NCBI GenBank assembly: GCA_043808095.1
Contig: JAZDFF010000035.1
Span: 1-57,204, forward strand
DNA: 57,204 bases
Source of the DNA: Candidatus Omnitrophota bacterium
GTDB lineage: Bacteria > Omnitrophota > Gorgyraeia > JAZDFF01
Reading direction: 5' to 3'
Below the pieces are notes generated by a model that was given only the letters and a program-made list of their open reading frames with translations, was not told the origin of the DNA and searched no databases. Below, piece after piece: positions 3,376-57,156 of this stretch. The number at the start of each line of letters is the position of its first letter. Position 1 is the stretch's first letter. The position numbers and the translations under genes are program-made.

Positions 3376-3522
3376 AAAGAGCACATAACTTATGGAACCT
3401 TTGATTAACTGAAGCGACGTAAGTTATATGTGCGAATTGGACCCTTGACATCGAAGATGTCAAGAGGTAAATTCGTGCAAACAATTTACGTTCACTATCG
3501 TTCCATAAATTGTGCACTCATT
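3376..3522. repeat. Multi-stem palindromic element, AATGAG/CTCATT family, copy 1
   Basis: Shares blocks GCGAATTG, cttgacat...atgtcaag, TAAATTCG, cactatcgttcc(a/g)taaattgtg with 24249-24547 and 34449-34672. Confidence 0.75.
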
Positions 3523-4973
3523 TACTTCCCAATGCAAAACTCCCCAAAAATTCTATCTAATATATCTTCGCTAGTCGTCTCGCCGGTTATCTCGCCTAAG
3601 GAGTCGAGTGAGCCTTTAAGGCAATAAGCAATCAGTTCTAAAGACTGCCTATTTTTGATCAAGTCTGCCGCTTCCTGTAAGTCCAAAAGCGCCCTTTTTA
3701 AGGCATCAATGTGCCGCGCGTTAGAAACCAGGGCCTCATCAGTAGCTATTATATCACCTTGCCAGATTTTTTTAAGTATTTGTTTTCTTAAATTATCCAG
3801 GCCTTTTCTTTCTAGAATAGATACACGCACTACCTGTTTAAATATCTCCCTTATTTTTTCGGGGTTGATTTTTTGCGTAAGGTCAATCTTATTAATCAGG
3901 GGGATAGTCTGTTTGTCCTTGGTCCTTTCTATAAGAAGGTAATCATCTTTAGATAATCTTTGGCTACCATCGAACAATAAAAGGACTAGGTCCGCCTCAT
4001 TTAATGATTTCTGGCTTTTTTGCACTGCCTTTTTCTCGATTAAATCCCGAGGCTCAAGAACGCCGGCAGTATCAGTTATCTTTAAAGGCACGCCTTCTAA
4101 GTTTATGACCTCTTCAATCACATCGCGGGTAGTCCCGGCGATAGGCGTTACAATGGCCCTGTCTTCTCCTAAAAGGGCATTTAAAAGCGAGGACTTACCG
4201 ACATTGGGTTTTCCGCAGATGACCGCGCTTATCCCCTCACGAAGGATCTTGCCTTGTTGGCCAGAGTCAATCAGGCCAGTTAATAATTTTTCCTTTTTTT
4301 CTATTTGCTTTAATATTTTTTGCCTTGGAAAGGATTCAATATCCTCATCGGGAAAATCTATTAGGGCCTCGAGGCGGGAAAGTATATAAAGGACCTCCTC
4401 TTTAGCCTCTTTTATTTTAAAGGATAAGGCGCCGCTTAGTTGATTGTAACCCACTTTCAAAGAGGCCTCGGTCTTGGCGCGGATAATATCTAAGACCGAC
4501 TCTGCCTGAACCAGGTCAATCCGGCCATTTAGAAATGCCCTCTTGGTAAATTCACCCGGTTCGGCAAGGCGCGCGCCATGGCCTAATACCAACTCCAGAA
4601 TCTTTCTTAAAGGAACGATCCCGCTGTGACAATTTATCTCTACAATATCCTCTTTGGTATAGCTCTTGGGCGAGCGCATTATTGTCAAAATAACCTCATC
4701 AATAATATCAGTCGATGGTCGATGGTCTATAGTCCGTCGTTTTTTATTTTTTTTCTGGTTTCTGTACTCTGGTTTCTGGTTTCTATCAATAATCCTTCCA
4801 TAATGCGTGGTATAGGTCTTAAACTCTGAAGGCCTGTTTCCGTTTCTGCCCACAAAAATTTCATCGGCAATCGCCAGGCTTTTTTTACCGCTGAGTCTCA
4901 CTATCCCAATACCCGCCTGTCCAATAGGGGTTGAAATCGCGGCAATAGTATCGTTTAAATCAATTTTTTTCAT
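3522..4973 (-). CDS. mnmE: tRNA modification GTPase MnmE (TrmE)
   Basis: DTIAAISTP, GEFTKRAFLNG, GKPNVGKSS, GTTRD, DTAG, NKID, C-terminal FCIGK. Confidence 0.97.
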   Translation of the reverse strand: MKKIDLNDTIAAISTPIGQAGIGIVRLSGKKSLAIADEIFVGRNGNRPSEFKTYTTHYGRIIDRNQKPEYRNQKKNKKRRTIDHRPSTDIIDEVILTIMRSPKSYTKEDIVEINCHSGIVPLRKILELVLGHGARLAEPGEFTKRAFLNGRIDLVQAESVLDIIRAKTEASLKVGYNQLSGALSFKIKEAKEEVLYILSRLEALIDFPDEDIESFPRQKILKQIEKKEKLLTGLIDSGQQGKILREGISAVICGKPNVGKSSLLNALLGEDRAIVTPIAGTTRDVIEEVINLEGVPLKITDTAGVLEPRDLIEKKAVQKSQKSLNEADLVLLLFDGSQRLSKDDYLLIERTKDKQTIPLINKIDLTQKINPEKIREIFKQVVRVSILERKGLDNLRKQILKKIWQGDIIATDEALVSNARHIDALKRALLDLQEAADLIKNRQSLELIAYCLKGSLDSLGEITGETTSEDILDRIFGEFCIGK

Positions 4974-6396
4974 TTCTAAATTCTCCTACCACAAATAATG
5001 ACCCGGTAACTAAAATCAAACCTTCTTTTTGCACAATCTCCCGGGCCTTGATTTTAGCCTCTTTTACAGTACTGGTTATAAAAACCTCTTTTCCTTTAAA
5101 ATATTGGGCCAAGTCACAAGGTGCACTTGCCCGAGGATTGTCCGCCTGAGTCAAAATCACTTTATCTGCCAAATCATAAAGCTCTTTACATATCCCTTCT
5201 ATATCTTTGTCATTGGAAATGCCTAAAACTAGAATTAGTTTTTTATATCCTCTGCCTCTGGCAGATCCGCCTTCGGCGGAAAAATTATCCCTGATTGCTT
5301 TTTTTAATACGGAGCTAGAGGCAATATTCTGTGCGCCGTCTAAAATGACTAAGGGGTCTTTTGAAATAACCTCGCATCTGGCCGGCCAGACAGTATTATA
5401 AAGTCCAGCTCTTATAAAATCAATGCCTACCTTAATATTGTGGCGCCTTAATGCCTCGATGACGGAAGCGGCTACTGTTGCATTAATAATTTGATGCTCG
5501 CCTAAGAGCCTTATTTTTAAATCTTTATATTCACCCATAATGCCTTTTACATTAAACCCTTCTTTTTTCTTCTGATAAGTTATATCTGTGCCTACCTCAT
5601 ATAATTTTGCACCAATCTCCTGACACTTATTTCTAATTACTTCAGCTACATCCTTTTCTTGAGGCGCGCTTATCACAATTGCCTGATATCCTGATATCCT
5701 GCGACCGAAGGGAGTCCCGAGTCCCTCGACTTCGCTCGGGATAAACTCCGTCGAGGGAGAACCTTTTATTATCCCTGCTTTCTCCGTCGCAATCTCTCTT
5801 AGAGTATTGCCTAATTTTTGGGTATGCTCATAACTTATAGGAGTGATGGCCGAGATCAAAGGATAAACTACATTAGTAGCATCGAGCCTTCCGCCTAAAC
5901 CAGTCTCTAAAACCACAAGGTCAACCTTTTTTTCTTTAAAATAAATGAAGGCTAAAGACGTATAGACCTCAAAAAAAGAAAGCGGTCCGTATTGAGAAGT
6001 TTTATTATAGGTTTCGATCTTAGGTCTTAGTCTTTCGACCAAATCCGCTAATTCGCCTTCAGAAATCATCCCTTCAAAATCTAATCTGGAATCTGGCATC
6101 TGGAATCTAGGATCTAAAATTCTAATCCTCTCCCTAAAATCCGCTAAATGCGGCGAGGTATAAAGACCGGTTTTATAGCCTGCCTCTCTTAGAATATAGG
6201 CGCAGAAAGCGCATGTTGAACCTTTGCCTTTGGTACCGGCGATATGTATACAGCGTAAATTATCTTGAGGATTATCTAATCTGGCCAAGAAACCCATGAT
6301 ACGCTCTAATTTCAAAGACTCCTCGTAAGACCAGGCAGGGATATTTTCGTAGTTAATGAAGGATTCTAAATATTGGATTACTTCTGGGTAGGCCAT
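4960..6396 (-). CDS. folC: Folylpolyglutamate synthase/dihydrofolate synthase
   Basis: HIAGTKGKGST, YTSPHL, ETGLGGRLDATN, EKAGIIK, TGSLF; start moved to ATG 6396 (upstream extension is repeat sequence). Confidence 0.95.
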   Translation of the reverse strand: MAYPEVIQYLESFINYENIPAWSYEESLKLERIMGFLARLDNPQDNLRCIHIAGTKGKGSTCAFCAYILREAGYKTGLYTSPHLADFRERIRILDPRFQMPDSRLDFEGMISEGELADLVERLRPKIETYNKTSQYGPLSFFEVYTSLAFIYFKEKKVDLVVLETGLGGRLDATNVVYPLISAITPISYEHTQKLGNTLREIATEKAGIIKGSPSTEFIPSEVEGLGTPFGRRISGYQAIVISAPQEKDVAEVIRNKCQEIGAKLYEVGTDITYQKKKEGFNVKGIMGEYKDLKIRLLGEHQIINATVAASVIEALRRHNIKVGIDFIRAGLYNTVWPARCEVISKDPLVILDGAQNIASSSVLKKAIRDNFSAEGGSARGRGYKKLILVLGISNDKDIEGICKELYDLADKVILTQADNPRASAPCDLAQYFKGKEVFITSTVKEAKIKAREIVQKEGLILVTGSLFVVGEFRNEKN

Positions 6397-6402
6397 TATT
6401 TT

Positions 6403-6475
6403 TACACCGCAAAGGCGCAAAAGTCCGCAAAGGCGCAAAATTTTATAATCAAATTCTTTGCGTTTTTGCGGCAAT
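6403..6475. repeat. Inverted array of degenerate ~9-nt CGCAAA repeats
   Basis: acaccgcaaaggcgcaaaagtccgcaaaggcgcaaaa...ctttgcgtttttgcgg; homologs at 20668-20790 and 25207-25472. Confidence 0.7.
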
Positions 6476-8092: not shown

Positions 8093-8125
8093 ATTAATAC
8101 CTCCTTAATCGCTTCCCGCTCAGGA

Positions 8126-8256
8126 GCGGGATCCCGCCGTCTCGGAAAACACAGAGCGGGAAAACCGCAAAATCACTTTATCAAATATTTACACCGCTAA
8201 ACCGCCATAGCGGGATCCCGCCTTTTTGTAAATACAGAGCGGGAAAACCGCAAAAT
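8126..8256. repeat. Two copies of GCGGGATCCCGC-[variable]-GCGGGAAAACCGCAAAAT unit
   Basis: Direct repeats at ~8126 and ~8209; a third copy at ~25262. Confidence 0.7.
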
Positions 8257-10244: not shown

Positions 10245-10297
10245 ATTCAGAACCTCCCAAGAGAACCGCAAAGCGCGGGCCAAAATTTGAGAGATAT

Positions 10298-10326
10298 ATT
10301 ATATGGGAAAAAAAATAGGAAGTCAA
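10298..10326 (-). promoter_or_regulatory. Sigma70-type promoter for the EF-G paralog operon
   Basis: TTGACT-N17-TATAAT on - strand. Confidence 0.75.
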
Positions 10327-10471
10327 GTAAGGATTAAAAAGAAGGGGTAAAGAGGATTTAAGGCTGAAAAAGGAGTCAAAGGGGAAAAATGCGTAAGATT
10401 ATATAAAAGAAAGGGTTTTATCTCTGTTTTAATCAATCTTTTGATAAAACTCAGGATTAATTGTGATCAGG

Positions 10472-10665
10472 TCTAGATGCTCGTCTCTAGTTATCCCCGC
10501 CTGCCGGCGGGCAGGGATGCTGGTATCGTCCTTCGACAGGCTCAGGACGATATCCTGAGTGCAATCGAAGGATATCGAAACTAGATTCTTGAAGCTGGGA
10601 ATTATAATATTAATATATTTAAACTAGCTTCGATACGAGCATCCATACCGAAAGCCGAGTTTCTA
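10472..10665. repeat. Degenerate heptamer inverted array with nested REP-like hairpins
   Basis: cccgcctgccggcgggcaggg and ccttcgacaggctcagg...cctgagtgcaatcgaagg embedded in gatgct/aaactag-type repeats. Confidence 0.6.
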
Positions 10666-10765
10666 AACTAAAGAAGATATTAACTTGACCTTGGATAGAA
10701 AATTAACTTTAAACTCAAAATGATTTATTGGTAACGGGTATGTGTGAAGACGAATAGAAGGAGGA

Positions 10766-11953
10766 TTATTCCTGGTAGGTAAAAATCTTGTCTTCGTAGT
10801 TTCGGATGGTGTATTTATCTTTATCCTGGGACATGAGATAATTGGGGGCAACCGGAACCTTCCCGCCGCCGCCCGGGGCATCTATAACATAGGTAGGAAC
10901 GGCATAGCCTGAGGTATGGCCCCGTAGTTTTTCCATAATATTGATGCCCACGGCCACCGGAGTCCTGAAATGGGCTGTACCCCTTACCGGATCGCACTGG
11001 TATATGTAATAAGGCCGCACGCGTATCTTAAGGAGCTCATGCATCAGTCTTTTCATAGTCGAAGGCCGGTCATTTATGCCTTTTAAAAGCACGGTCTGGC
11101 TGCCTAAAGGTATACCACTGTCAACCAAAAAGTCACAGGCCTGCTTGGTGAGTTTAGTGATCTCCTTGGGATGGTTAAAATGTATGCTCATCCAGATAGG
11201 CGAGTATTTTTTAAGCATGTTCACAAACTTAGGGGTAATACGCATAGGAAGGTTTACCGGTACGCGCGTTCCGATGCGCAAGAATTCAACATGAGGAATG
11301 GCTTTAACCGCCTTAATAATCTCCTCAAGCGCCTCATCCTCAAGCATCAGGGGATCTCCTCCGGAAATTAATACATCGCGCACCTTTTTGTTTGATTTTA
11401 TATAATCTAAGGCCAGGTCTATCCTTTTTAAATTGGTCTCTTTTTCTCCTACCAGGCGCCTTCGCGTACAATGGCGGCAATACATCGCGCATTGTTCGGT
11501 GGCCAAAAGAAGTATGCGATCCGGATAACGATGCACCAGGCCCGGAACCGGAGAATCCTTGTCTTCGGCACAAGGATCATCCATCTCCTGTTCATAGCTG
11601 TTAAATTCGGATATGGTCGGTACAGCCTGACGGCGCAGGGGACAGTTCGGGTCCTGGGGGTCCATTAACAAGGCCCAGTAAGGTGTAATGGCAAGGGCAA
11701 GCCTGCCGCTTGATCTTTTTATACCTGCCTCTTCTTCTTCGGTGAGGTTGATGATTTGGGCAAGTTGTTCTCTTTTAGTAATACGGTTTTTTACCTGCCA
11801 ACGCCAGTCATACCATTTTTCCGGAATAAGGTCATCCCAGAGTTGCACCCGCTTATAATCGAGGGCAGATTGAATCTTTTTCGGTATAGGAATTATTTCC
11901 AGGTCTTGTTCGTTTTTCTGCGTTTCTTTAGTCTGCGTTGTTTCGCCGGCCAA
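10766..11953 (-). CDS. kamA: KamA-family radical SAM enzyme (lysine 2,3-aminomutase-like)
   Basis: HRYPDR, CAMYCRHCTRRR, SGGDPL, PYYIYQCD, YVIDAPGGGGK (PLP lysine). Confidence 0.9.
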   Translation of the reverse strand: MAGETTQTKETQKNEQDLEIIPIPKKIQSALDYKRVQLWDDLIPEKWYDWRWQVKNRITKREQLAQIINLTEEEEAGIKRSSGRLALAITPYWALLMDPQDPNCPLRRQAVPTISEFNSYEQEMDDPCAEDKDSPVPGLVHRYPDRILLLATEQCAMYCRHCTRRRLVGEKETNLKRIDLALDYIKSNKKVRDVLISGGDPLMLEDEALEEIIKAVKAIPHVEFLRIGTRVPVNLPMRITPKFVNMLKKYSPIWMSIHFNHPKEITKLTKQACDFLVDSGIPLGSQTVLLKGINDRPSTMKRLMHELLKIRVRPYYIYQCDPVRGTAHFRTPVAVGINIMEKLRGHTSGYAVPTYVIDAPGGGGKVPVAPNYLMSQDKDKYTIRNYEDKIFTYQE

Positions 11954-11954
11954 G

Positions 11955-12962
11955 TTATTCTCCTGATTTTTTTAGGTTATACCTTTCTAAGGCATAATCC
12001 AGGATTCTGTTTACCATCTGATTATAAGTCTCGCCCATAAGCTCGGCTTCAAACCTAAAGACATCTTCAACAGATAATGACGGCAGAGGATTTATCTCAA
12101 GGACATAGGGATTGCCTTTTTCATCCACGCGAAAATCTACCCGGCCAAAATCCCGGCATTCTACTGCCTTATAAGTAACCAAGGCCATCTTTTTAAGATG
12201 GCCTTCTAGCTCTTTATCAATCTTGGCAGGGCAGACATATTTTACCTTGTCTGAATGGATCCGATCATAAGTATAAATCAAATCACCCAGTTTTAATTTT
12301 CCGTCGATCTCGGTCTGGACTATCTCCAAAACAAGCGGAGGGTCATTTCCGATAATCGGAACAGTAAATTCATATCCGCTGATGAACTCTTCAACTAATG
12401 CAGATTGTTTATAAACTTCATTGACAAACCGGATCTGTTCAATAAGGCGGTCTCTATTTTCTACCCGCGATTTATCGGATACGCCTTTAGACGAACCTTC
12501 ATAGCGGGGTTTAACCATCATGGGAAAGTCAAAGGGCAGTCCGTTAAGGCTGCCGGCAGTGGTTGCCTCAAAAAACCGCGGGGTCGGTAGACCCGTATAA
12601 CTAATCACCTTTTTGGTCAGGATCTTATCCAGGGTAAGAGCCAAGGTCAGACCATCCGAGCCGACAAAAGGTACATTCATCGCCTCAAGAATTACCGGCA
12701 CCTGCGACTCGCGGTTTCTGCCGATAAGGCCTTCTGAAATATTAAATACGATATCGACTTTCTGTAAAATATCAAGGTTGCGCAATAAATTCTGGGCATT
12801 GCCGATTTTTATAACTTCGTGGCCCCCGGAGGCGATGGCATTATTTACCTGCTCAATAGTAGAATCCTGGTCAAATTCCGCAACAATATCCTCAGGATCG
12901 GTTTTTTTGGACCTATATTGGCTTTTTACGTCATAAGTAAGCCCGACAATCTTTTTTTTCAT
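11955..12962 (-). CDS. D-Ala-D-Ala ligase-like ATP-grasp protein
   Basis: FNISEG, VPFVGSD, KPRYEGSSKG, EEFISGYEFTV, RVDFR, LEINPLP. Confidence 0.88.
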   Translation of the reverse strand: MKKKIVGLTYDVKSQYRSKKTDPEDIVAEFDQDSTIEQVNNAIASGGHEVIKIGNAQNLLRNLDILQKVDIVFNISEGLIGRNRESQVPVILEAMNVPFVGSDGLTLALTLDKILTKKVISYTGLPTPRFFEATTAGSLNGLPFDFPMMVKPRYEGSSKGVSDKSRVENRDRLIEQIRFVNEVYKQSALVEEFISGYEFTVPIIGNDPPLVLEIVQTEIDGKLKLGDLIYTYDRIHSDKVKYVCPAKIDKELEGHLKKMALVTYKAVECRDFGRVDFRVDEKGNPYVLEINPLPSLSVEDVFRFEAELMGETYNQMVNRILDYALERYNLKKSGE

Positions 12963-12969
12963 CGCTTTT

Positions 12970-13008
12970 TAAAAGAAAAAGGGGCCTTTAAAAAATAAAA
13001 GGCCCCTT
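12970..13008 (-). terminator. Intrinsic terminator-like hairpin in leader of the ATP-grasp/kamA operon
   Basis: - strand aaggggcctttt...aaaggcccctt followed by T-rich tract. Confidence 0.5.
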
Positions 13009-13097
13009 AAAAAATCAACCCTGCACTCCTCTATGTCTTTCCAATTTTTTATTCTACCCTCTCTTTGATTGTTTAAAAACTTTTCTTTCTTACTATT

Positions 13098-13126
13098 AAA
13101 TTAACACAAAATTATACCGTTGTCAA
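13098..13126 (-). promoter_or_regulatory. Sigma70-type promoter
   Basis: TTGACA-N17-TAATTT with extended TG. Confidence 0.55.
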
Positions 13127-13298
13127 TAAAATTTTAACTAAATTCTAAAAAATAAAACCTGATTCTTCGCATTTTTACCTTGATTCTACGTCGACAAAAT
13201 GGAAGATTATAAAAAATTATTTTTTGATTTTAATTCTGTATAAATATGCGTGCATCTTCCGATAATTAAAATTATTTTCTAGAATCGTACGGAAAAAC

Positions 13299-13480
13299 GC
13301 CTGCCTGTTGACAGGCAGGCAGAAAATCTATACATTCGCGGCCAAAAAACTGGCATTTGGTTCGACTGCGCTCACCACCCCGAGCGGAGCCGAAGGACAG
13401 ACTGAGAATGAACGATTGAGCCACTCAGTCCTTCGATTAGACTCAGGACTGAGTACTGAGCGAAGTCGAACGTACTCAGT
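13299..13480. repeat. Cluster of REP-like palindromes (TTCGAC-n-GCTCA / TGAGCG-n-AGTCGAA and CCTGCCTG..CAGGCAGG)
   Basis: Same family at 5723, 10530, 15319, 39833, 49153. Confidence 0.75.
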
Positions 13481-13524
13481 ATCAATTTTAAATAAACTTC
13501 TATTTTCGGACAAGAGAAATTGGT

Positions 13525-14541
13525 TTAACAGATCCTTGGTATGGGATCTGAAGTCAACATATCTAAAATTCTCTCGCCGCCAACGCAAGTATTTAAAATT
13601 GCCTTGCCTTTATACCTTTTATTAAGTTCGCCGATTATGCAACTATCTTTGCCATCGGGAAGTCTCTTCATGATATCTAAAGCCATATTTACGTAATTTT
13701 TATCAATTACCAGAACAACTTTGCCTTCATTGGCAATGTATAAAGGATCCAAACCTAAAATATTACAGGCCGCCCTTACTGACTTATTGACAGGTATGGA
13801 ATTTTCATCCAGGATGATGCCCAAATCAGTTGACTGCGCTATCTCATTTAATACCGTAGCCAATCCTCCTCTTGTAGGATCGCGCATAAATTTGATTGCA
13901 CCACTATCCCGCCTCATTTTCCCTAATAAGCCTAAAACCAGATTATTCAATGGGGCGGAGTCGCTTTTAATCCTAAAATCAAAATTTAATTCTTGCCTTT
14001 GACCTAAAATCGCCAGGCCATGATCACCGACAGGGCCATTTATGATTATTTTGTCAGACGGCCGGATAGACTTCGCCGAAAGCCTGATCCCTTTAATAAT
14101 CTCGCCTATCCCGGAGGTATTAATAAATATCTTATCCGCTTCGTTTTTACCGACCACCTTGGTATCGGCAGCAACAATTTCTACCTCGGCTTGTTTGGCT
14201 GCCCGGGAGGCCGAGGCGGTAATCTTATTTAATAAATTAATAGGAAACCCCTCTTCGATAATAAGGCCAAGCGATACCGCCTGCGGCCTTGCGCCCATCA
14301 TCAAGAGATCATTCACTGTGCCGAATACGGAAAGACTTCCGATATCTCCTCCGGGAAAAAACAGGGGTTTTACCACATAAGAATCAGTAGTAAAGGCAAA
14401 TGATTTATTGCCGATTTTTATCCTGGCAGCGTCAGTCAATTCATTCAAGGCCGGGCTTAAAAGATGCTTTAAGAATACGCCTTTGATTAAATCTTGAGTA
14501 AGCCTGCCGCCGCTACCATGGCCGATTTGGATTCTTTCCAT
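13525..14541 (-). CDS. hypE: Hydrogenase maturation carbamoyl dehydratase HypE
   Basis: HGSGG, TTDSYVV.PLFFPGGDIG, GTVND, RDPTRGG, NEGK, C-terminal PRIC. Confidence 0.96.
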   Translation of the reverse strand: MERIQIGHGSGGRLTQDLIKGVFLKHLLSPALNELTDAARIKIGNKSFAFTTDSYVVKPLFFPGGDIGSLSVFGTVNDLLMMGARPQAVSLGLIIEEGFPINLLNKITASASRAAKQAEVEIVAADTKVVGKNEADKIFINTSGIGEIIKGIRLSAKSIRPSDKIIINGPVGDHGLAILGQRQELNFDFRIKSDSAPLNNLVLGLLGKMRRDSGAIKFMRDPTRGGLATVLNEIAQSTDLGIILDENSIPVNKSVRAACNILGLDPLYIANEGKVVLVIDKNYVNMALDIMKRLPDGKDSCIIGELNKRYKGKAILNTCVGGERILDMLTSDPIPRIC

Positions 14542-14548
14542 AAATTGT

Positions 14549-15247
14549 TTATCTGGATTTTACCACCCCAACCCTCTTACAATACCCTCTAATCTTACAT
14601 TGCGAACACAAAGGGGAAACAGGCCTGCAGATATTCTGCCCAAAGGCCACCAATATTGGATTATACACCTTAAAGAAACGCCGGGGTAATATTTTTCTCA
14701 GGCTCATCTCAGTGCCAAATGCATCCTTGGTCTTAATTAAACCTAAGCGATTAGAAATCCTGTGCACATGCGTATCAACACAGATGCCGTATTTATTAAA
14801 ACCTTCAGTCAAAACAAGGTTTGCTGTTTTTCTGCCTACGCCCTTTAGGCTAAGGAGCCCTTCTAAGGTATATGGGACCTTGCCTTTAAACCTATCGATG
14901 ATTGTAGATGAAATCTCCTTGATATTTCTCGCCTTGGTATAATAAAAACCAACCGGATAAATTGCCTTTTCAATATCCCGAAGAGCAAGTTTTAAAATTC
15001 CCGACGGTGTATGGGCCTTTCTAAATAATCTTTCTGAGGCAGCATGAGTAGTTGCATCCTGGGTGCGCAGACTTAAGATACAGGATATCAAAACAATAAA
15101 AGGGTCTTTTTTAAAATCAAGCGCTACCCTGCTGACTGAAGGCATAGGCCAGGCCTTTGATTCTTCTTTTAAAATCGGAATAATCTTGGTGAAAATATCC
15201 TTTTGGCTCAAACCTTTATCCCCATATAAATAATCACAGATGTCCAC
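14549..15247 (-). CDS. nth: Endonuclease III
   Basis: LSLRTQD, HhH LKGVGRKTANLVL, VDTHVHRISNRLG, C-x6-C-x2-C-x5-C; start uncertain. Confidence 0.94.
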   Translation of the reverse strand: MDICDYLYGDKGLSQKDIFTKIIPILKEESKAWPMPSVSRVALDFKKDPFIVLISCILSLRTQDATTHAASERLFRKAHTPSGILKLALRDIEKAIYPVGFYYTKARNIKEISSTIIDRFKGKVPYTLEGLLSLKGVGRKTANLVLTEGFNKYGICVDTHVHRISNRLGLIKTKDAFGTEMSLRKILPRRFFKVYNPILVAFGQNICRPVSPLCSQCKIRGYCKRVGVVKSR

Positions 15248-15402
15248 AGATTATCCCACACCAAAATAAAAAAATCCAGCGGGATCCCGCTTGTGAGCGG
15301 GAAAAGATGCAGATTAGTCCTTCGACTACGCTCAGGACTAATGGTGAGCGAAGTCGAACCATTAGCACAGATGTCGTTGGCAATATCTGTGCCCATCTGT
15401 GT
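15234..15402. repeat. CACAGAT/ATCTGTG inverted array with nested GCGGGATCCCGC and CTTCGAC-GCTCAGG hairpins
   Basis: cacagat units left, atctgtg units right, two different hairpin families inside. Confidence 0.7.
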
Positions 15403-15419
15403 AAGGTAAGATATTCTAT

Positions 15420-16046
15420 TTATAACTTGATTCCTAGAGAGAAAAGATCCCTCTTTAATTTAGCCGCATTTTTAAAATGCAGGCTGTTAATCGATAATTT
15501 CGCTGCCGCATCAGTCAGTTCCTTACGATCATCGATATAGACAACTTCCTGCGGTCTTAATTTATAAATTTTTAATGCCTTTTTATAAATCAGAGGGTTG
15601 GGTTTAATAAAACCTATCTTATAAGAGAGGATGGCTTTAGAAAATATTTTTAAAACTTGTGGAAATTTTTTTCTTATATATCCAAAATGAAGCCTGTTTA
15701 TATTCGATAAAAGCGCTATTCGGTAGTTTCTTTTTAGAAATCTTGCAAATCTATGGACTTTTCTATTTTGGGGGCTAACAAAGAAAATCTCATTCCAGAC
15801 AGGTACAAAATCTCTGTAACTAATATTTAAGTTGAGCCTTCTCTTTAAGAGCGAAAAAAATCGATAGCCGGTAAGTTTTCCTGCCTCGAATTTTTGGGTG
15901 AGACCTGAATCAAAAAGAAAATTATAGACTTCCTTTAAATCGGCATGCGTAAAATTTAAAAGGCGCCTGGTGGCGATCCAGTGGTCGAAATCAATTACTA
16001 CATTGCCTAAATCGAAGATGATTAATTTATATCTTGTCTTACCCAT
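15420..16046 (-). CDS. HAD-superfamily phosphatase (YihX-like)
   Basis: FDLGNV, LLSN, KP...IY, YIDD. Confidence 0.9.
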   Translation of the reverse strand: MGKTRYKLIIFDLGNVVIDFDHWIATRRLLNFTHADLKEVYNFLFDSGLTQKFEAGKLTGYRFFSLLKRRLNLNISYRDFVPVWNEIFFVSPQNRKVHRFARFLKRNYRIALLSNINRLHFGYIRKKFPQVLKIFSKAILSYKIGFIKPNPLIYKKALKIYKLRPQEVVYIDDRKELTDAAAKLSINSLHFKNAAKLKRDLFSLGIKL

Positions 16047-16109: not shown

Positions 16110-17081
16110 TCAATTGTCCTTTTTCTCTATCTGTTTAAAAAGGTCTAAGAATCTGTCTTCGTATTCTTTATAAATATTCCATTTATCTAATTCTATCTTT
16201 AACTCATTTGCCTTTTTGATATCTTTTTTTGCATGTTCGAAAAGCTCTTCGATCTTGGCCTTAGCGGATTCGGGAAGTTTTGTGTAAGACTCGAGGCTCT
16301 TCTTGATACGTTCTATCTCCTCTTCGCCAATGGGCCCTTGAGTTTCTCCCGAGACCTTTAAATAATCGATTAATCTCTCGATCTCTTCTTCCATCGTTTT
16401 GGCCTGTTTTTTAAGATCGGCAAAGTCAAGGTCTACCTTAAGCAATTTCGAAAGCGCCTCCAGAACTATTAAAGATGCCTTGGGATTTTCAATCTGGATA
16501 GTATATAAAGGTACCTCACCTAAAATACAATAGCCGCTCATCTTTTTTTCTTTGGCTACCGCAAGCAAAAGACCATTCATGCCGCTGATTTGGCCTGCCT
16601 TCATCATCTGTATACCCTGGCTATTAAACCAAGTTGCACTATTTTTTTCGGTAGCCGCGGCTAAGACTTTCGGAGCAGTCAAGTGATCAATGGCAACCGG
16701 CATAGCGGCAAAGGTAAAAACCTTTTTTACCTTAAAAGCTTCGGCCAGGTTTAATATCTCCCGGGCATAGTTATAGCCCTTTTCAAAACCGGGCTGGGCT
16801 TCTGAGATAAATATGATAATATCATTTACTGCCTTTTTGTCCTTATAGAAATAAAATCTTCCCTTGGGAAACCAGGGTTTTGAGATTATGCCCTCATCCA
16901 CAAAGGCCTCCTGGGGAAAAAAGTACCCCTCGCAGTCAAAGCTTGCGAATTCCTGAGCCGCTAATTTATCCTTTAAATAGACTGCTGCCCTTATAGCCAC
17001 ATTGCCCATACCCGGCCAGCCGGCAATCAAAACAGGGTTTTTAAATTTCAATTTTTTATCAATCTTAATTTTTGTTTTCAT
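16110..17081 (-). CDS. PAC2 (proteasome assembly chaperone) family protein
   Basis: PVLIAGWPGMGNVA, ISGMNGLLL, ENPKAS; helical C-terminal extension. Confidence 0.85.
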   Translation of the reverse strand: MKTKIKIDKKLKFKNPVLIAGWPGMGNVAIRAAVYLKDKLAAQEFASFDCEGYFFPQEAFVDEGIISKPWFPKGRFYFYKDKKAVNDIIIFISEAQPGFEKGYNYAREILNLAEAFKVKKVFTFAAMPVAIDHLTAPKVLAAATEKNSATWFNSQGIQMMKAGQISGMNGLLLAVAKEKKMSGYCILGEVPLYTIQIENPKASLIVLEALSKLLKVDLDFADLKKQAKTMEEEIERLIDYLKVSGETQGPIGEEEIERIKKSLESYTKLPESAKAKIEELFEHAKKDIKKANELKIELDKWNIYKEYEDRFLDLFKQIEKKDN

Positions 17082-17171
17082 ATTTTTATGATTCCGGAGA
17101 TTCTAATTATGATTACAGTGATTATGCTTGATAAAAATATCATAAAAATGCTCCCAAGTCAACTCCGGAAT

Positions 17172-18359: not shown

Positions 18360-18518
18360 TAAAAAAATTGCGATACACAGATGGGCACAGACTAAGATAA
18401 AGTAGAGAGTATAAAGTAGCGAGAAAAAATTAAAAAATCTCTCTATTCTCTGCTATCTCCTCGCTACTCTTAATAATCTGTTATTGTCTGTGTAATATTA
18501 ATAATTTTGTTGTATCAA

Positions 18519-19652: not shown

Positions 19653-19734
19653 ACTGCTCTGTTAACTAAATAATACTACTGTTTTTCCCGCCAAAAGTTT
19701 TCTATGGGGCGGGATCCCGCTTTTGCGGGAAAAT

Positions 19735-20102
19735 TTAAATATCAAAAAGCAAACATCAAAATGACATATCAAAATTCAAAAAATTAAATAAAAAAGATGA
19801 ATGGAAAAAGATAAAGAGTATTAAAATTTTTAATTTTACATTGTCCCGAATGTCGCTATTCTTAGTAGTGTAACTTCGGGATCCCGTCCCGAATGAATCA
19901 ACCGCTTCTGTATAGCTTCGGGATCCCGATGATTTACTTCTACGAATGGCTTCTTTCGGGAAAGAATAACCTAAGAAATTACTACATTCGGGATAATTTT
20001 GATCTTTGCCCTGAGAAATTCGCAGAATTTCCAGGACTAAGTCTCTGAAATTGCCTGCCCGCAGGGCGAGCAATTTCTAGGGGCACTTTGATTTTTACAT
20101 TG
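19735..20102. repeat. Heptamer-type inverted array (atcaaaa/ttttgat) with two nested insertions
   Basis: Left arm 19735-19782; right arm interrupted by 19843-19994 and ~20009-20083. Confidence 0.7.
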
Positions 20103-20652: not shown

Positions 20653-20762
20653 TCTAATTTGCTCCTTTAATCGCCAAGACGCAAAAATTGATTTAATAAT
20701 TTATACACCGCCAAGACGCAAAATTTTTCTTTTGCGTTTTTGCGGTATCTTTAATAGTTACC

Positions 20763-22313: not shown

Positions 22314-22342
22314 ATCTTTATTGATAATGGCAAAACCAATGG

Positions 22343-22440
22343 AACACGAATGAACACTAATCATACACGAATAAACACGAATTTGTCATCGGAATTTATT
22401 CGTGAGAATTGGTATGCAATTCGTGAGAATTCGTGCATTA
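22343..22440. repeat. ACACGAAT / ATTCGTG inverted array
   Basis: 4 acacgaa-type units, then 4 attcgtg-type units. Confidence 0.75.
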
Positions 22441-34434: not shown

Positions 34435-34448
34435 ACCCCACCTCCTTT

Positions 34449-34672: not shown

Positions 34673-34721
34673 TGACCTTTAATAACCCGCTAACTTACTG
34701 GCGGATAAATCCTTAATAATT

Positions 34722-39148: not shown

Positions 39149-39220
39149 ATCTTTTAAAATAAAGTAGCGAGAAAAACAAAATCTCTCTACTCTCTACTTG
39201 CTACTCTTAACAATCTGTGT

Positions 39221-43664: not shown

Positions 43665-43713
43665 CTCGCGTGGCAGTATAGTAAAATGCTTCTAAAATAA
43701 TTGCTGTATATTC

Positions 43714-43811
43714 CACAGATGGGCACAGATGCCCGCCACAAAGATTAGCGGGTCCGCCAAAGTATTATGGCGGAAAAAGCTCACAGATTAGCACAGATAT
43801 CTGTGCTAATC
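43714..43811 (+). repeat. 98-bp direct repeat, copy 1
   Basis: 95/98 identical to 46263-46360. Confidence 0.9.
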
Positions 43812-43866
43812 TGTGAAAACGTAAGTTTTGAGCACAATCTGTGATAATCTGTGTAAAAATAAAACT

Positions 43867-45366: not shown

Positions 45367-45483
45367 AAAATGTCTAATTTCCTAATGTCGAATGCCGAAT
45401 AAATTCTTAAATGACTAATTTAAAATTAAGCATTTAATTATTAAAAAATTAATTAGTCATTCGGATTTAGGCATTAGTCATTA
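45367..45483. repeat. Heptamer inverted array (aatgtct/aatgact ... agtcatt)
   Basis: aatgtcta, aatgtcg, aatgccg, aatgact vs agtcatt, aggcatt, agtcatt. Confidence 0.7.
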
Positions 45484-46247: not shown

Positions 46248-46262
46248 TGGGCCTCCGTTTTA

Positions 46263-46360
46263 CACAGATGAGCACAGATACCCGCCACAAAGATTAGCGG
46301 GTCCGCCAAAGTATTATGGCGGAAAAAGCTCACAGATTAGCACAGATATCTGCGCTAATC
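46263..46360 (+). repeat. 98-bp direct repeat, copy 2
   Basis: 95/98 identical to 43714-43811. Confidence 0.9.
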
Positions 46361-49010: not shown

Positions 49011-49343
49011 TTGCCGGCTGGGGCGAAGGGGGATAATTTTTATGCTGATATTATACAATAAAATAAATTAAATTGATATCAAATTTAAAAAACCGCTCTT
49101 GGAGTTAGATTTTCAAATACTTGGGAGATTATTTAGAAAGTGATCGAGTGGTTCCTTCGACTTCGCTCAGGACTCCCTCGGCCTCAAACAAGTTTGAGGG
49201 CCTCGGTCGCGAGTGTTCGGGGTTATAGGGTTTAAGGTTTTCCCTCATTGCATTCAAGACTTCCCTTCGGTCGCAAGGGGTCAAGGTATCGAGGGTTCGA
49301 GGCAAAAAGTGCGTGTCCCCGGAAATAAAGAACAAAATCTAAC

Positions 49344-49991: not shown

Positions 49992-50084
49992 TTAAATCCT
50001 CAATATATCACGCGGCCTCTTCTAATATACAAATCATGGGGATACGATACTTAATTCTGAATTATGTAATGTGTCCCCGGCATT

Positions 50085-53031: not shown

Positions 53032-53379
53032 GTTTAGCCTCCTCTTATTTTCTTTAATTATACCACTTTCATTTCTAAAAGGTAAGGGATTTAGATTATA
53101 CTAAAAAGACGGCGACGGCCGTTTTCTTTCGGCATGAATTTTGTGTTGTGCGAACCAAGATTCTCGTGTGACAGGATTGTGACAGGGGAAAGGCTCCTCG
53201 CTTCTGACAGTTTGAATGGTGGAGGCTCGGAGTTAGTGAATTCCAGAATTCCGGGGACACGTACTTTTTTAATTGCGGAGTTGAGAGATGAGATTGTGAT
53301 TGGTGTACAATACTTGTTAAGCTCTGGCTCGGGCGGAGCCTCGCCAGAGCCCGTTGTTTCTTACCTTATCGCAAGTAGA

Positions 53380-53546
53380 AGGCACTACGTTCGCTATTTT
53401 GCTTGTCGCAAAATTACGCTCGCTTTAGTGCCGTTTTAATTTTCCTTGTCGGCACGTAGCAGGCACCAAGCTCACTGCTCGGCTTGTCGCCTCGCGACGT
53501 TCGCCTTGGTGCCGTTAAATTTTTCCTTGTCGGAAAAATTTAACGG
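53380..53546. repeat. Two imperfect ~81-bp units of hairpins with CTTGTCG loops
   Basis: cttgtcg at 53402, 53445, 53483, 53526; ggcac...gtgcc stems. Confidence 0.7.
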
Positions 53547-53619
53547 GGACGAGGGGATTTGAACCCCCGATCTTCAGATCGACAATCTGACGCGTTAAAC
53601 CAGACTACGCCACGTCCCC
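53544..53619 (-). tRNA. tRNA-Asp(GTC), CCA not encoded
   Basis: Cloverleaf: GGGGACG/CGTCCCC acceptor, TCAGA-TTGTCGA-TCTGA anticodon arm, GGTTCAAATCC, discriminator G. Confidence 0.93.
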
Positions 53620-53718: not shown

Positions 53719-53846
53719 GAAAAATATTTCTAACCTCCGCCAAAGGCGAATCTCATGCCTAAGGCGGATCTCATGCCGAAGGCAGATTAGCCTCTGGCTG
53801 AAGCCTTCGGCTGAAACTGCGCCAACCGCCCTGAAAGGCTTGAAGT

Positions 53847-54534: not shown

Positions 54535-54690
54535 ACTTAAGAATTATACCTGATTACAGTGATTTATTTTTGAGATTACAGAGATTAAATCATTAATCCG
54601 AAGATTTTTCATGTTATCTGCCTGTAAATGGGTTTTATAATCACTTCCTTTAATCTCAGTAATCTATTTTTTAATCGTTGTAATCAGACA
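54535..54690. repeat. GATTACAG / GTAATC-type ~9-mer inverted array
   Basis: gattacagtgatt, gagattacagagatt vs taatcac, taatctcagtaatc, tgtaatcag; related short copy at 17098-17125. Confidence 0.65.
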
Positions 54691-55433: not shown

Positions 55434-55869
55434 TCGTTTCTTTTTGCTTAAACATGCGATAACGGTGATTGCCAAATTTGGAGTAAATACGGTCAAACGG
55501 CTTAATCTGCCTTTTCTCCACGTAAAAAGGCACGTTTTTATAAACTCCCATAAGGTCCATCTCGGAATCAAGCAGGATCTCAATATCCTCTGTAGGGTGC
55601 CAGGGCTTATTTTCAAAGATTAGGGGTTCGCCCTCTCTAATCCAGCTGTCCTCTTTGACGGGAAAATCGCCCCTGAATTTACCCGGGGCATAACTTACAC
55701 AGCCAAAAATCACAAGGCCTAAAAATATAATGGAGCCCACCCGGGCTAAAGCCCGGAGTTCCAAAGGCGGAATACTCAAGCGGCCACATCTTATCCGCGC
55801 CCTGAAGGGCGCGGTTTTCAGGCCGCGGAGTATAAAGCCGATTTTAACTAAGGTATTTAAGTATTTCAT
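55426..55869 (-). CDS. Lipoprotein with palindromic insertion in signal peptide
   Basis: IFG-C lipobox; operon position between mlaE and mlaF. Confidence 0.7.
   Translation of the reverse strand: MKYLNTLVKIGFILRGLKTAPFRARIRCGRLSIPPLELRALARVGSIIFLGLVIFGCVSYAPGKFRGDFPVKEDSWIREGEPLIFENKPWHPTEDIEILLDSEMDLMGVYKNVPFYVEKRQIKPFDRIYSKFGNHRYRMFKQKETND
55731..55831 (-). mobile_element. ~100-bp IS200/IS605-like non-autonomous palindromic element, in frame
   Basis: Two subterminal hairpins ccgcgccc-ttca-gggcgcgg and ccgggc-ttta-gcccgg, preceded by TTAT on - strand. Confidence 0.6.
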
Positions 55870-56646: not shown

Positions 56647-56649
56647 GTC

Positions 56650-56934
56650 TTAGCCCACAAATTTGGCGCCGTTAAAATATCCTTTACCCAGGTGGTCGCT
56701 AAATGCCTGCGACCAGACCACCTTTGCCTTGATTTTCCTTAAAGAGAGGCGCGGCTCATTATAAAGATTTATCCTGATGACCCTGCCGGGCCTGAGTTCT
56801 TTCTCGGAGAAAAAGCACATTCCGGTAAGGCTGAGATCCCGGGTAAAACTCTCCATTCGGGCGCTGAAAGATTTATCCCGATATTGCAGGGGATTGGCGA
56901 TTTTTTCGCGTTTACATATCCTTCGTTCTTCCAT
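56650..56934 (-). CDS. PilZ domain protein
   Basis: ERR...R, DLS.TG, AKVVW, GAKF; ATG 56934 with AAGGAG. Confidence 0.85.
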   Translation of the reverse strand: MEERRICKREKIANPLQYRDKSFSARMESFTRDLSLTGMCFFSEKELRPGRVIRINLYNEPRLSLRKIKAKVVWSQAFSDHLGKGYFNGAKFVG

Positions 56935-56950
56935 GCTAAGCTCCTTCTTC

Positions 56951-57156
56951 AATGAGCCCCGACGATACGTCGGGGCGAATTGACCCTGCACTTATTTCAC
57001 TTTCGATGCCGGATTATTTTTATATATTAGTTTATCCCGTTAACTCCTATTCTTTAAAATCGAAACTTTTTATTGAAATAAGTGCTGGGTAGGTTCGGAC
57101 AAATAAGTTATGTCACTTAAATTCTTAATATAGGGTTCCATAACTTATGTCCTCGC
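56951..57156. repeat. Multi-stem palindromic element, AATGAG/CTCATT family, copy 4
   Basis: aatgag-ccccgacg..cgtcgggg-cgaattga, cacttatttc/gaaataagtg stem, gttccataactt. Confidence 0.7.

Follow-up and report, generated by a model that had tools for sequence, protein, structure and literature searches.

The window analysed here, a stretch of 57,204 nt from a Candidatus Omnitrophota bacterium, contains three kinds of inverted-repeat element: word-array hairpins, in which tandem 7-10-mers are followed by the inverted complement of the same words; long three-tier palindromes (LPEs); and small hairpins of 20-60 nt, which comprise the CCTGCC, GGATCC double, TCCGCC/CCCGCC double and CGACG hairpins and the CTTCGAC loop element. 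An inverted-repeat scan returned 98 pairs in the window, and TRF reported arrays at 6408-6439, 18397-18423, 19737-19782, 22342-22435, 29368-29423 and 39183-39207. All of the families named in the first-pass annotation were found again at or near the places it had given them, whereas its statement that nearly every intergenic gap holds such an element proved somewhat overstated: most gaps fold strongly (z < -2 in 15 of 23 window gaps of 60-300 nt, compared with 105 of 150 other gaps and 19 of 100 coding controls), although these z values are noisy because they rest on eight mononucleotide shuffles per sequence. Matches to repeats elsewhere in the genome cover 3115 of 8639 crude intergenic bases in the window and 1567 of 48565 coding bases; these counts are approximate because the gene map is a crude longest-ORF map.

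Words of the CGCAAA family form hairpins at 6399-6470, 5' of the true folC start (TRF, repeat matches); at 20665-20750, with its end at the downstream gene's ribosome-binding site; and at 25207-25470, where three of them are accompanied by a nested GGATCC double hairpin at about 25247-25300 (TRF, inverted-repeat scan). Nested in the CACAGAT array hairpin at 15235-15401 are both a GGATCC double hairpin (15257-15304) and a double-loop element of the CTTCGAC family (15318-15365, X = ATTAG); this composite was found at at least eight loci with 79-92% identity, and AGATTAGCACAGAT occurs uninterrupted 37 times. At 18376-18497 a CACAGAT hairpin surrounds a AGTAGAGAG hairpin (18397-18470; TRF, inverted-repeat scan), the same composite returns at 27068-27130 as a CGCAGAT outer hairpin around a AGTAGCGAG inner hairpin, and at 39160-39219 a AGTAGAGAG hairpin is followed by a CACAGAT word (TRF). 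The CACAGAT arrays at 43711-43860 (fold z -13.7; up to 23 repeat matches per base) have a CCCGCC/TCCGCC double hairpin between words (43732-43774) and a perfect 18+18-nt palindrome at 43781-43816, and a near-copy of this composite, again with CACAGAT words and a double hairpin (46281-46323), lies at 46259-46360.

Other word families are represented more sparsely. A composite repeat of the GATGCTCG family (10474-10672, up to 14 repeat matches per base) holds a CCTGCC-type palindrome of 20 nt (10496-10515) as well as a double-loop element of the CTTCGAC family (10526-10576, X = TATCG). Words of the GATTACAG family lie within an imperfect inverted repeat at 17053-17137 and form an array hairpin at 54535-54690 (both by inverted-repeat scan), and ACACGAAT words form one at 22343-22438 (TRF, inverted-repeat scan). 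Three adjoining elements occupy 19683-19993 (TRF, inverted-repeat scan, repeat matches), namely a GGATCC double hairpin (19683-19732), a AAATATCAAAA word array (19735-19782) and an inverted repeat (19825-19980) whose 62-nt arms are made of CTTCGGGATCCCGA and CATTCGGGA units; the 105-aa ORF called there has no Pfam match and is probably not a gene. At 29368-29562 a TAAATCC heptamer array with its inverted complement (29368-29499) precedes a CCTGCC hairpin (29541-29562; TRF, inverted-repeat scan), and at 33193-33671 CATCAAGCAAAA units carry CCTGCC- and TCCGCC-type hairpin inserts, together with a 60-nt tandem repeat in 2.2 copies (33361-33490) and a TCCGCC hairpin (33650-33671; TRF, repeat matches). 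A AATGNCNAAT-type word hairpin at 45367-45482 has 13 repeat matches.

Four LPE copies, all detected by the inverted-repeat scan, are gene-less shells of a GIY-YIG cassette. The first (3376-3522, fold z -9.5) fills the entire gap from the mnmE stop to the folE start and shares its shell with the GIY-YIG cassette at C1:157630 (C denotes contigs of the same genome). In the second (24251-24542, fold z -11.7), which has a TCCGCC hairpin nested at 24451-24520, the inner hairpin CCCCACACCAAC / GTTGGTGTGGGG (24321-24425) encloses a loop of 65 nt at the position that the GIY-YIG gene occupies in cassettes, and its shell is common to six homologous cassettes in other genomes. The third (34435-34680) contains a CGACG hairpin (34493-34507), a TTGACAT inner hairpin (34519-34578) and a TCCGCC/CCCGCC double hairpin (34599-34643), and the fourth (56959-57204), with a CGACG hairpin at 56959-56973, is cut by the contig end. 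The shell was present in 6 of the 11 GIY-YIG homologues inspected.

Small hairpins sit in word arrays, in LPEs, in one another and, in frame, inside genes. A GGATCC double hairpin (TTCCCGC..GCGGGA, TCCCGC..GCGGGAA) lies at 8115-8160 and a second one, inside a CGCAAA word array, at 8199-8256, and a CCTGCC hairpin at 13298-13323 is terminator-like on the minus strand because a T-run follows it, as is the case for few elements. Two CTTCGAC-family units occupy 13358-13479 (inverted-repeat scan), of which 13429-13479 is a double-loop element (X = ACTCAG), and a CTTCGAC-loop composite at 49153-49326 precedes a single copy of the RAYT-type repeat (GTGTCCCCGG, 49313-49320). In the CTTCGAC family the loop is conserved and the stem is copied from the target. 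Nesting of one family inside another, as the first-pass annotation had proposed, is real at 8210-8256, 10496-10515, 15257-15304, 15318-15365, 18397-18470 and 43732-43774, and several of these have intact paralogous sites. We found the joined flanks of nested hairpins uninterrupted elsewhere in six clear CCTGCC, four GGATCC and six CTTCGAC cases: those of the 8199-8256 insert at C31:44867, those of the 10496-10515 palindrome on C1 and C17, and those of the CTTCGAC copy at C1:95186, a paralogue of the one at 10526-10576, at C11:17496; for the context of 33193-33671 the intact site is at C8:791, compared with C42. Together with composites that carry the same insert at at least eight unrelated loci, the intact sites bear out the proposed layered population of non-coding elements.

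The families named in the first-pass annotation are also the top over-represented 12- and 14-mers of the 1.64-Mb genome. Counted on both strands in the genome and in the window, with chance expectation from first-order Markov shuffles, there are 265 and 6 CCTGCC hairpins (1.6 in shuffles), 80 and 8 GGATCC cores (0.8), 106 and 8 TCCGCC (0.8), 134 and 20 CCCGCC (5.8), 60 and 7 CTTCGAC (4), 96 and 8 CACAGAT pairs (0), 73 and 8 CGCAAA pairs (2), 28 and 2 ACACGAAT (0), 91 and 3 GATTACAG (0), and 80 and 8 AGTAGAGAG matches, the last being the weakest family (13.2). Crude intergenic space amounts to 11% of the genome but holds between 67 and 90% of family matches.

No mobilising enzyme was found in the window, as already noted at first pass: searches with Y1_Tnp, S23p, GIY-YIG and GxxExxY match other contigs only. 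The genome has eight S23p, five GxxExxY and three small GIY-YIG cassette genes, and the earlier guess that the window holds empty forms of such cassettes is upheld, given that all 16 are bracketed by repeats and that word families match cassettes. Among them, 14 have inverted arrays or hairpins, and two GIY-YIG genes inserted at tRNAs have a duplicated tRNA segment and a hairpin. The CACAGAT, CGCAAA and ACACGAAT words go with GxxExxY, AGTAGAGAG with S23p and LPEs with GIY-YIG genes: the CGCAAA words of 6399-6470 also bracket GxxExxY genes at C31:56098 and C15:15528, the ACACGAAT words of 22343-22438 enclose the GxxExxY gene at C15:63051 as well as homologues L153, L157 and L158, and AGTAGAGAG words lie on both sides of the S23p gene at C39:9405-9770. 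In 13 of 26 cassettes, compared with 10 of 1473 crude ORFs, a 7-mer occurs two or more times per side in inverted orientation. For GATTACAG, the word family with the most copies, this 95%-complete genome contains no cognate gene; its words bracket GxxExxY homologues in relatives, and words matching 54535-54690 do so at L165, L166, L171-L173 and L176 in other genomes. The CCTGCC, CGACG and CTTCGAC families were linked to no enzyme.

Among GxxExxY homologues in other genomes of the class, all 21 inspected have inverted-array brackets, and the array word tracks protein similarity. The word is CACAGAT or CGCAGAT in homologues at 72-74% identity, CACGAAT in four at 50-60%, CGCAGAT or CGCGAAT in others at 44-54%, and mostly of GATTAC type at 36-44%. 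None of the sequences compared comes from a close relative: the nearest genomes represent different families of the class, and metagenome loci reach at most 60% protein identity. Syntenic gene junctions measure 2-92 nt in these metagenome relatives, compared with 63-482 nt in the window, and relative L120 has a 180-nt LPE at a site where L132 has 15 nt. A single sequencing run contained related DNA, in the form of short contigs that end at repeats. Copies of the 20-nt palindrome CCTGCCTGCCGGCAGGCAGG, most of them exact, are present in 33 of 101 class genomes belonging to different families (one genome for the reversed control), and the TTCGAC loop in 96 of 201 (three control matches). This spread points to active, sequence-specific propagation.

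We consider it likely that the window is a stretch of genome-wide, multi-layered, non-coding selfish DNA elements comprising arrays, LPEs and small hairpins. The repeat status of the elements, their nesting with intact paralogous sites, the match of word families to cassettes and the conservation across the class are direct observations, and the spread of the palindrome and the TTCGAC loop counts in favour of the same reading. The correlation between word and protein is open to a different account, as it could result from common descent of whole cassettes and not from recognition.

A reversed derivation, which we regard as unlikely, would make the word-array hairpins the primary dispersed repeats, with the small nuclease genes acting as homing genes: each nuclease would cleave an empty hairpin at its centre, and the gene would be written in when repair uses a filled copy as template, so that empty copies would be landing pads rather than decayed cassettes. 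Many empty copies indeed lack any gene remnant and are perfect palindromes whose loop measures 0-14 nt (e.g. 43781-43816), and no fragments of S23p, GxxExxY or GIY-YIG genes were found in the window at E <= 0.01. Empty copies also far outnumber filled ones (96 CACAGAT motif matches on both strands compared with two genes), and the GIY-YIG proteins, whose nearest solved relatives are UPF0213 and SLX1, resemble SLX1-type structure-specific nucleases. However, the arrival of arrays at new loci is left unexplained, S23p cassettes share the architecture yet lack a nuclease, and in many cassettes the gene's stop codon merges into the first word downstream (TAATCTGTG...), which fits a co-evolved unit better than repeated capture.

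It is improbable that the elements are selected signals serving the host (terminators, mRNA stabilisers or RNase III sites) and spread by recombination, not by element-specific enzymes. They are indeed located between genes of the same direction and end at ribosome-binding sites, T-tails are present on a few (13298-13323, 15278-15291 and 43780-43817), and RNase III excises S23p elements of 23S rRNA at a 28-bp stem, according to one report (PMC4990558). Nevertheless, the window has 82 terminator-like sites, with 62.5 expected, most elements have no T-run, Rfam gave no match even at E <= 1 on 10250-15450, orthologous junctions of relatives do without the elements, and copies occur within one another. 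With respect to the co-directional genes that flank them, the elements show balanced orientations (14:11, 15:14 and 21:19), and this, together with the in-frame copies in mnmE, folC and hypF, indicates that the elements do not have a strand-specific RNA function, which again favours selfish elements.

Very improbable is a classical REP/BIME (REPIN) system in which a single genomic RAYT moves all hairpin families; the first-pass annotation had cited REP/BIME elements and their RAYT transposases as the established case. The only RAYT-like gene (C31:73693-74316) encodes a 207-aa Y1 transposase that scores 58 bits against PF01797; its best NCBIfam match is 'REP-associated tyrosine transposase', but at a score of 60, under the cut-off of 80. 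Of 201 class genomes, 162 have Y1_Tnp genes, and a perfect 16-nt inverted repeat flanks the gene here; this repeat, GGGGACACGTAC, is however a separate family with 13 matches on both strands, and none of the 10 listed families flanks the gene. Further RAYT-type repeat copies in the window are at 50071-50078 and 53253-53260. Among 12 parsed RAYT-like ORFs (the genome's own and 11 from ten other class genomes), 10 have flanking inverted repeats of at least 11 nt that are GGGGAC- or GGGAC-like, and none has a TTCGAC loop within 160 nt. The TTCGAC motif persists in 12 of 39 Y1-negative genomes, one of which is 95% complete and has 14 copies, and GTAG and CGTC tags are absent. The layers and empty cassettes proposed at first pass stand, and the REP/BIME-RAYT frame does not fit.

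Palindromic mini-elements in frame within protein-coding genes, as found here, are known from Rickettsia palindromic elements and Methanocaldococcus MJRE repeats, whose sequences are probably unrelated to the Omnitrophota hairpins. The small dispersed repeats (SDR) of Nostocaceae, reportedly described with tandem heptamers by Elhai and colleagues in 2008, are said to be hairpins of 20-30 nt that lie within one another and within heptamer arrays, as do those in Omnitrophota; no enzyme is known for them. They differ in phylum and sequence, and the Omnitrophota arrays are tied to small-gene cassettes. One account records no SDR outside Nostocaceae (PMC5861425). REP/BIME and REPIN elements, as described in two reports (PMC3116915, PMC3733652), are likewise short extragenic palindromes in tens to hundreds of copies, often paired and some intragenic, and the Omnitrophota genome shares with them a RAYT-like gene with its own flanking repeat; unlike them, it lacks the GTAG and CGTC tags, its abundant families lie away from the RAYT flanks, and several unrelated families coexist nested in one another. 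The Ssn proteins (Chenal et al. 2025, PMC11893778) are single-strand nucleases of the GIY-YIG type that are associated with NTS/SRM hairpin repeats; that paper likewise describes a tiny single-domain GIY-YIG gene between hairpin repeats that also exist as many gene-less copies, a repeat of its own for each nuclease, and a likeness to insertion sequences remarked on by its authors. In contrast to the Ssn hairpin of about 30 nt, the Omnitrophota shell is a three-tier palindrome of 130-300 nt, and the SRM search motif, as given there, is not enriched in the genome (5 matches, compared with 2-5 in shuffles). The 23S rRNA intervening sequence of Coxiella burnetii, described as a selfish element (PMC4990558), similarly has an S23p (PF05635) ORF between terminal inverted repeats with a long stem. 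Unlike such intervening sequences as described there, the Omnitrophota cassettes lie between protein genes, have arms of tandem word arrays, and include eight S23p paralogues, each with different words, as well as many gene-less copies.

If the window is composed of selfish elements, the word-array hairpins would be gene-less miniatures of cassettes of about 0.5 kb, with the arrays as terminal inverted repeats and a GxxExxY PD-(D/E)XK nuclease or S23p four-helix-bundle protein gene in the parent. LPEs would form a second layer, as GIY-YIG nuclease cassette shells without the gene, and the small hairpins a third, inserting into the first two, into one another and, in frame, into genes. Since S23p lacks a nuclease fold, it cannot mobilise its cassette unaided; nucleases specific for hairpins or single strands, with genes elsewhere in the genome, may move or maintain the gene-less forms in trans, and each word may serve one nuclease subfamily as its recognition unit. 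The elements would be tolerated because of where they are sited, either in protein loops or in the space from a stop codon to the next ribosome-binding site.

The window makes up the whole of C35, one of 42 contigs of a 1.636-Mb genome that is 95% complete and has ~41% G+C. Its genes, nearly all on the - strand, are an ordinary housekeeping set of a diderm cell. Two tRNAs are its sole Rfam matches above gathering thresholds; Rfam found no rRNA in the window, and a search at E <= 1 over 10250-15450 gave no relevant match. Every gap of the window was read, and the inverted-repeat families named in the first-pass annotation are present at or near the positions it cited. The same families head the whole-genome 12- and 14-mer lists in an unbiased k-mer count (for example CCTGCCTGCCGGCAGGCAGG, GCGGGATCCCGC, TCGGGATCCCGA, GATTACAGTGATT, CACAGATTAGCACAGAT, TGAGCGAAGTCGAA and GGCGGACCCGCC). 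In genome-wide pattern counts most families are 20- to 100-fold or more above Markov shuffles, with a smaller excess for CTTCGAC (~15-fold) and AGTAGAGAG (~6-fold, 80 versus 13). By a crude ORF map, from which all our coding and intergenic figures follow, 67-90% of pattern matches are intergenic, the density of these families' 9-mers in intergenic space exceeds that in ORFs 5- to 49-fold, and 36% of the window's intergenic bases have a repeat match elsewhere in the genome, versus 3% of coding bases. The further claim that nearly every gap holds an inverted-repeat element stood in part: most gaps are structured, but some are unoccupied. Folding far better than shuffles was found for 15 of 23 window gaps of 60-300 nt and for 105 of 150 gaps elsewhere in the genome, versus 19 of 100 coding controls, in a test that is noisy (8 mononucleotide shuffles per sequence, on a sample of gaps). 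Intrinsic-terminator-like sites number 82 across the window against 62.5 expected, and few of the elements are of this kind.

We distinguish three layers of repeats: word-array hairpins, long palindromes and small hairpins. A word-array hairpin is a run of a 7-10-nt word, a loop of 0-15 nt and then an inverted run. Small genes bracketed by repeats, here called cassettes, comprise eight S23p (PF05635), five GxxExxY (TIGR04256 / PF13366, of the PD-(D/E)XK fold) and three small GIY-YIG genes in this genome. Repeats bracket all 16, in 14 cases as inverted arrays or hairpins; the other two are GIY-YIG genes inserted in tRNAs, with a duplicated tRNA segment and a hairpin. The bracketing words are those of the window's own families: CACAGAT at the GxxExxY genes at C31:57006 and C39:8059, CGCAAA at those at C31:56098 and C15:15528, ACACGAAT at the one at C15:63051, and AGTAGAGAG at the S23p gene at C39:9405 (contig:position). 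This supports the suggestion that the window holds empty forms of cassettes that carry small nuclease-like genes elsewhere. As had been noted, no mobilising enzyme lies in the window itself: the S23p, GxxExxY and small GIY-YIG genes and the REP-associated Y1 transposase (RAYT) are all on other contigs.

Under a strict definition of bracketing (a 7-mer at least twice on each side of the gene, inverted), 13 of 26 cassettes are bracketed versus 10 of 1473 crude ORFs. Other ORFs flanked by inverted repeats were considered as new cargo and rejected: they encode familiar proteins such as HPr, YggS and HisH and simply stand between two gaps carrying the same repeat family. GxxExxY homologues were found in 39 of 201 class genomes, from other families of the class, and inverted tandem words bracket the gene in 5/5 cases here and in all 21 homologues inspected in other genomes, where the first downstream word is often fused with the stop codon. 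Moreover, the word tracks protein similarity: it is CACAGAT or CGCAGAT at 72-74% identity, CACGAAT in four homologues at 50-60%, CGCAGAT or CGCGAAT in others at 44-54%, and mostly GATTAC(A/G)CAGATTA or ATCACTGTAATC at 36-44%. The ATCACTGTAATC words of these distant homologues are the window's GATTACAG family, for which no cassette gene was found in this 95%-complete genome.

Because cassettes are bracketed by the same words, the relation of gene-less hairpins to cassettes resembles that of MITEs to insertion sequences; like MITEs, they share terminal inverted repeats with a gene-bearing element and have no coding capacity. The S23p-bearing intervening sequences of 23S rRNA likewise consist of a PF05635 ORF between terminal inverted repeats, as do 8/8 S23p genes here, but those intervening sequences sit in a helix of the 23S rRNA, from which RNase III excises them, whereas the cassette flanks in this genome read as protein genes or tRNA. 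Neither GxxExxY nor S23p has a PDB sequence relative at E <= 0.01.

The second layer consists of long palindromic elements (LPEs) with a common three-tier palindrome, at 3376-3522, 24251-24542, 34435-34680 and 56959-57204; in all four, the palindrome runs up to the ribosome-binding site of the gene that follows. At C1:157630-157884 an 84-aa GIY-YIG gene is enclosed in an LPE shell, and of 11 other genomes inspected, 6 have a homologous gene (49-79% identity) in such a shell. One metagenome relative carries an LPE-type element at a junction where another has 15 nt. The arrangement matches that of the Ssn/SRM systems, in which a small single-domain GIY-YIG gene has flanking hairpin repeats that also occur gene-less; the published degenerate SRM motif is not enriched in this genome (5 matches versus 2-5 in five shuffles). 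Ssn proteins belong to CDD family cd10448 and cleave single-stranded DNA at specific sites; the PDB relatives of the GIY-YIG protein here are UPF0213 and SLX1 (E = 1e-4 to 4e-3). Small GIY-YIG genes, present in 82 of 101 class genomes, are too common for phyletic discrimination. The GxxExxY and GIY-YIG nucleases are natural candidates for the movers of the first two layers.

The tRNA-inserted GIY-YIG genes, with their duplicated tRNA segment, lie at C5:44966-45220 and C40:9765-9980 in this genome and at two loci (L221 and L222) in another genome, and the duplication seems to leave an intact copy of the tRNA in place. At L221/L222 the duplicated tRNA half carries two tandem CCTGCC palindromes, which were rejected as the cognate repeat of these genes because they are nested inside that half.

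The first-pass annotation had placed the repeats in the frame of REP/BIME elements mobilised by RAYTs, with which the present families share short extragenic palindromes at high copy number. This frame was not borne out. The single RAYT-like Y1 transposase of the genome (C31:73693-74316) is flanked by perfect inverted copies of TTCCGGGGACACGTAC, part of a minor repeat (GGGGACACGTAC / TTCCGGGGACACGTAC) with 13 genome matches, four in the window by a shorter pattern, and by none of the ten families first recognised. RAYT-like genes in ten other genomes have GGGGAC- or GGGAC-like inverted repeats, and TTCGAC loops were found near 0 of 12 RAYT-like genes. The TTCGAC motif occurs in 84 of 162 Y1-positive versus 12 of 39 Y1-negative genomes, a weak association among genomes that are not independent, and some Y1-negative genomes still carry many copies. 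The terminal GTAG or CGTC tag of REPs (Di Nocera 2013) is largely missing (7/265, 16/106, 1/134, 2/80, 4/48 and 0/14 instances).

The third layer, the small hairpins, had been described as inserted in the arrays and in each other. We excised each hairpin, joined its flanks and sought the resulting 22-mer elsewhere in the genome. Intact paralogous sites recovered in this way confirm the nesting: they were found for six clear CCTGCC copies (including 10496-10515), four GGATCC double hairpins (including 8199-8256) and two CTTCGAC elements, with four more of the last by a relaxed search. A composite of a CACAGAT array and a GGATCC insert at 15235-15317 recurs at 8 or more other loci with 79-92% identity, and the array therefore still spread after it was invaded. 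Where the genes on both sides run in the same direction, small hairpins point either way without preference. In-frame copies also occur within mnmE, hypF and, twice, folC, and the Pfam alignments of these proteins contain corresponding extra residues.

In mnmE (3522-4973, - strand), arrays of GTCGATG (x2.4) and TTTCTGG (x4.7) at 4711-4784 fall within the N-terminal TrmE domain, keep the reading frame and encode ~25 extra residues (RNQKPEYRNQKKNKKRRTIDHRPST), with 143 residues on 117 Pfam model positions. The folC-like ORF (4960-6393, - strand) has two in-frame insertions, at about 5650-5730 and 6083-6115; one is a CTTCGAC-like hairpin with CCTGATAT words, encoding ..SPSTEFIPSEVEGLGTPFGRRISGYQ.., and the other consists of AATCTGG words, encoding ..DPRFQMPDSRLD... 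The start annotated for this ORF, a TTG at 6474, is probably incorrect, as the sequence MAYPEV.. begins near 6393. In the C-terminal half of hypF (39433-40623, - strand), a CTTCGAC loop and a CCTGCC hairpin are inserted in frame at about 39800-39870, between GTTATCGGGTTAT direct repeats, adding ~26 residues (..SVIGLFLRLRSGQAGYLASPAGRRVIG..).

Several other repeats of the window were recorded. A 60-nt tandem repeat (33361-33490, 2.2 copies, 91% identity) precedes a cold-shock gene on the + strand (about 33705-33900); CATCAAGCAAAA units related to it, both close by and on other contigs, have been invaded by CCTGCC and TCCGCC hairpins. At 53739-53783, just upstream of tRNA-Val and tRNA-Asp, stands an 18-nt tandem repeat (GCCAAAGGCGAATCTCAT, 2.5 copies), and 53330-53560 is rich in hairpins. 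The G+C-rich hairpin composite at 55725-55840 (GGGCTAAAGCCC.., GCGCCCTGAAGGGCGC..), with up to 8 genome repeat matches per base, overlaps a 147-aa ORF without a Pfam match. The 16-mer CTCATTAAAGGAGGTG occurs at 33672-33687 and 34439-34454, ahead of two divergently oriented genes, and many elements terminate in ..ATTAAAGGAG; these look like the organism's preferred ribosome-binding-site context.

Target-site duplication, a further trait of MITEs, gave a mixed picture: a flanking repeat of 4-6 nt accompanies 17 of 19 CTTCGAC elements, and CCTGCC insertions mostly have none. The conserved part of the CTTCGAC family is a ~19-nt loop, (T/C)CC-TTCGACnnnGCTCA-GG(A/G), and the flanking stem differs between copies, both here and in eight other genomes. 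Complementarity of the stem arms at positions 4-11 averages 3.5 and 4.1 of 8, versus 2.3 and 2.5 for permuted partners, a level reached by none of the permutations. Full copies run X, loop, X', second loop on the opposite strand, X, where X is 4-8 nt long and X' is its complement; the flanking X repeat is present in 17 of 19 full copies, the central X' in 15 of those 17, and X is single in the intact sites. The middle bases of an element's two loops are not mutually complementary, and the loops therefore look like independent units. At one locus in another genome (L082), a copy is nested within the loop of another.

One speculative and rather unlikely reading is that CTTCGAC is a new type of mobile unit, in which the loop is carried and the stem is rebuilt from the target at each insertion. 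A staggered break would leave X overhangs, and a ~19-nt loop unit would be joined to each 3' end; each end would then fold back and copy X from the overhang, after which the two new tails would pair and be filled in. Alternatively, a guide mechanism similar to that of IS200/IS605 may operate. We know of no earlier description of the family, insertion chemistry of the first kind would be new among bacterial mini-elements, and the motif strings did not occur in the literature searched.

Comparison genomes belong to other families of the same class, with orthologous proteins 45-70% identical. The 20-nt palindrome CCTGCCTGCCGGCAGGCAGG is nevertheless present in 33 of 101 class genomes, of different families and mostly letter for letter (one genome matched the reversed control), and TTCGACNNNGCTCAGG occurs in 96 of 201, with up to 41 copies (three control matches). 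Such identity of 20-mers, set against that of the orthologues, points to ongoing sequence-specific propagation or transfer and not to neutral survival. Syntenic junctions measure 2-92 nt in metagenome relatives versus 63-482 nt in the window, a comparison of junction sizes only, with relatives of <=60% protein identity. One DNA sequencing run holds 11% of sampled words, and no RNA run is listed as a holder; the contigs of that DNA run are short (345-880 nt), diverge from the window by 2-10% and stop at repeats, and none bridges an intergenic gap. Beyond the class, CCTTCGACNNNGCTCAGG was matched at at least 124 loci against ~1100 chance matches expected in 596 Gb, which is near chance level; among the matches listed, 11 of 133 have hairpin flanks versus 1.7 expected, and the motif may extend to other phyla.

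Taken together, the system is a variation on known types (REP/MITE-like repeats, Ssn-type pairs and S23p intervening sequences), with one possibly new insertion logic. We found no literature on palindromic intergenic repeats in Omnitrophota, and nothing on repeats in that on PDDEXK_3 / PF13366 / TIGR04256 / TIGR02436; the function of PDDEXK_3/GxxExxY was given as unknown in a 2012 superfamily survey (PMC3424549). In practical terms, the repeats break assemblies, as related contigs end there, and spawn spurious ORFs. One such gene call is probably the 105-aa ORF at 19756-20073, which has no Pfam match and consists almost entirely of repeat units, including an inverted repeat with 62-nt arms. 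Should every word prove to be what its own small nuclease recognises, Omnitrophota would harbour a natural collection of nuclease-word pairs with differing specificities, the nucleases of 84-130 aa and the words of 7-10 nt, and Ssn-type pairing would extend to the uncharacterised PDDEXK_3/GxxExxY family. The S23p-bearing intervening sequences of 23S rRNA would be explained as cassettes of a wider family that landed at one particular site. The system would also show how a streamlined 1.6-Mb genome bears a heavy load of selfish DNA, which would be confined to the space between stop codon and ribosome-binding site and to protein loops.
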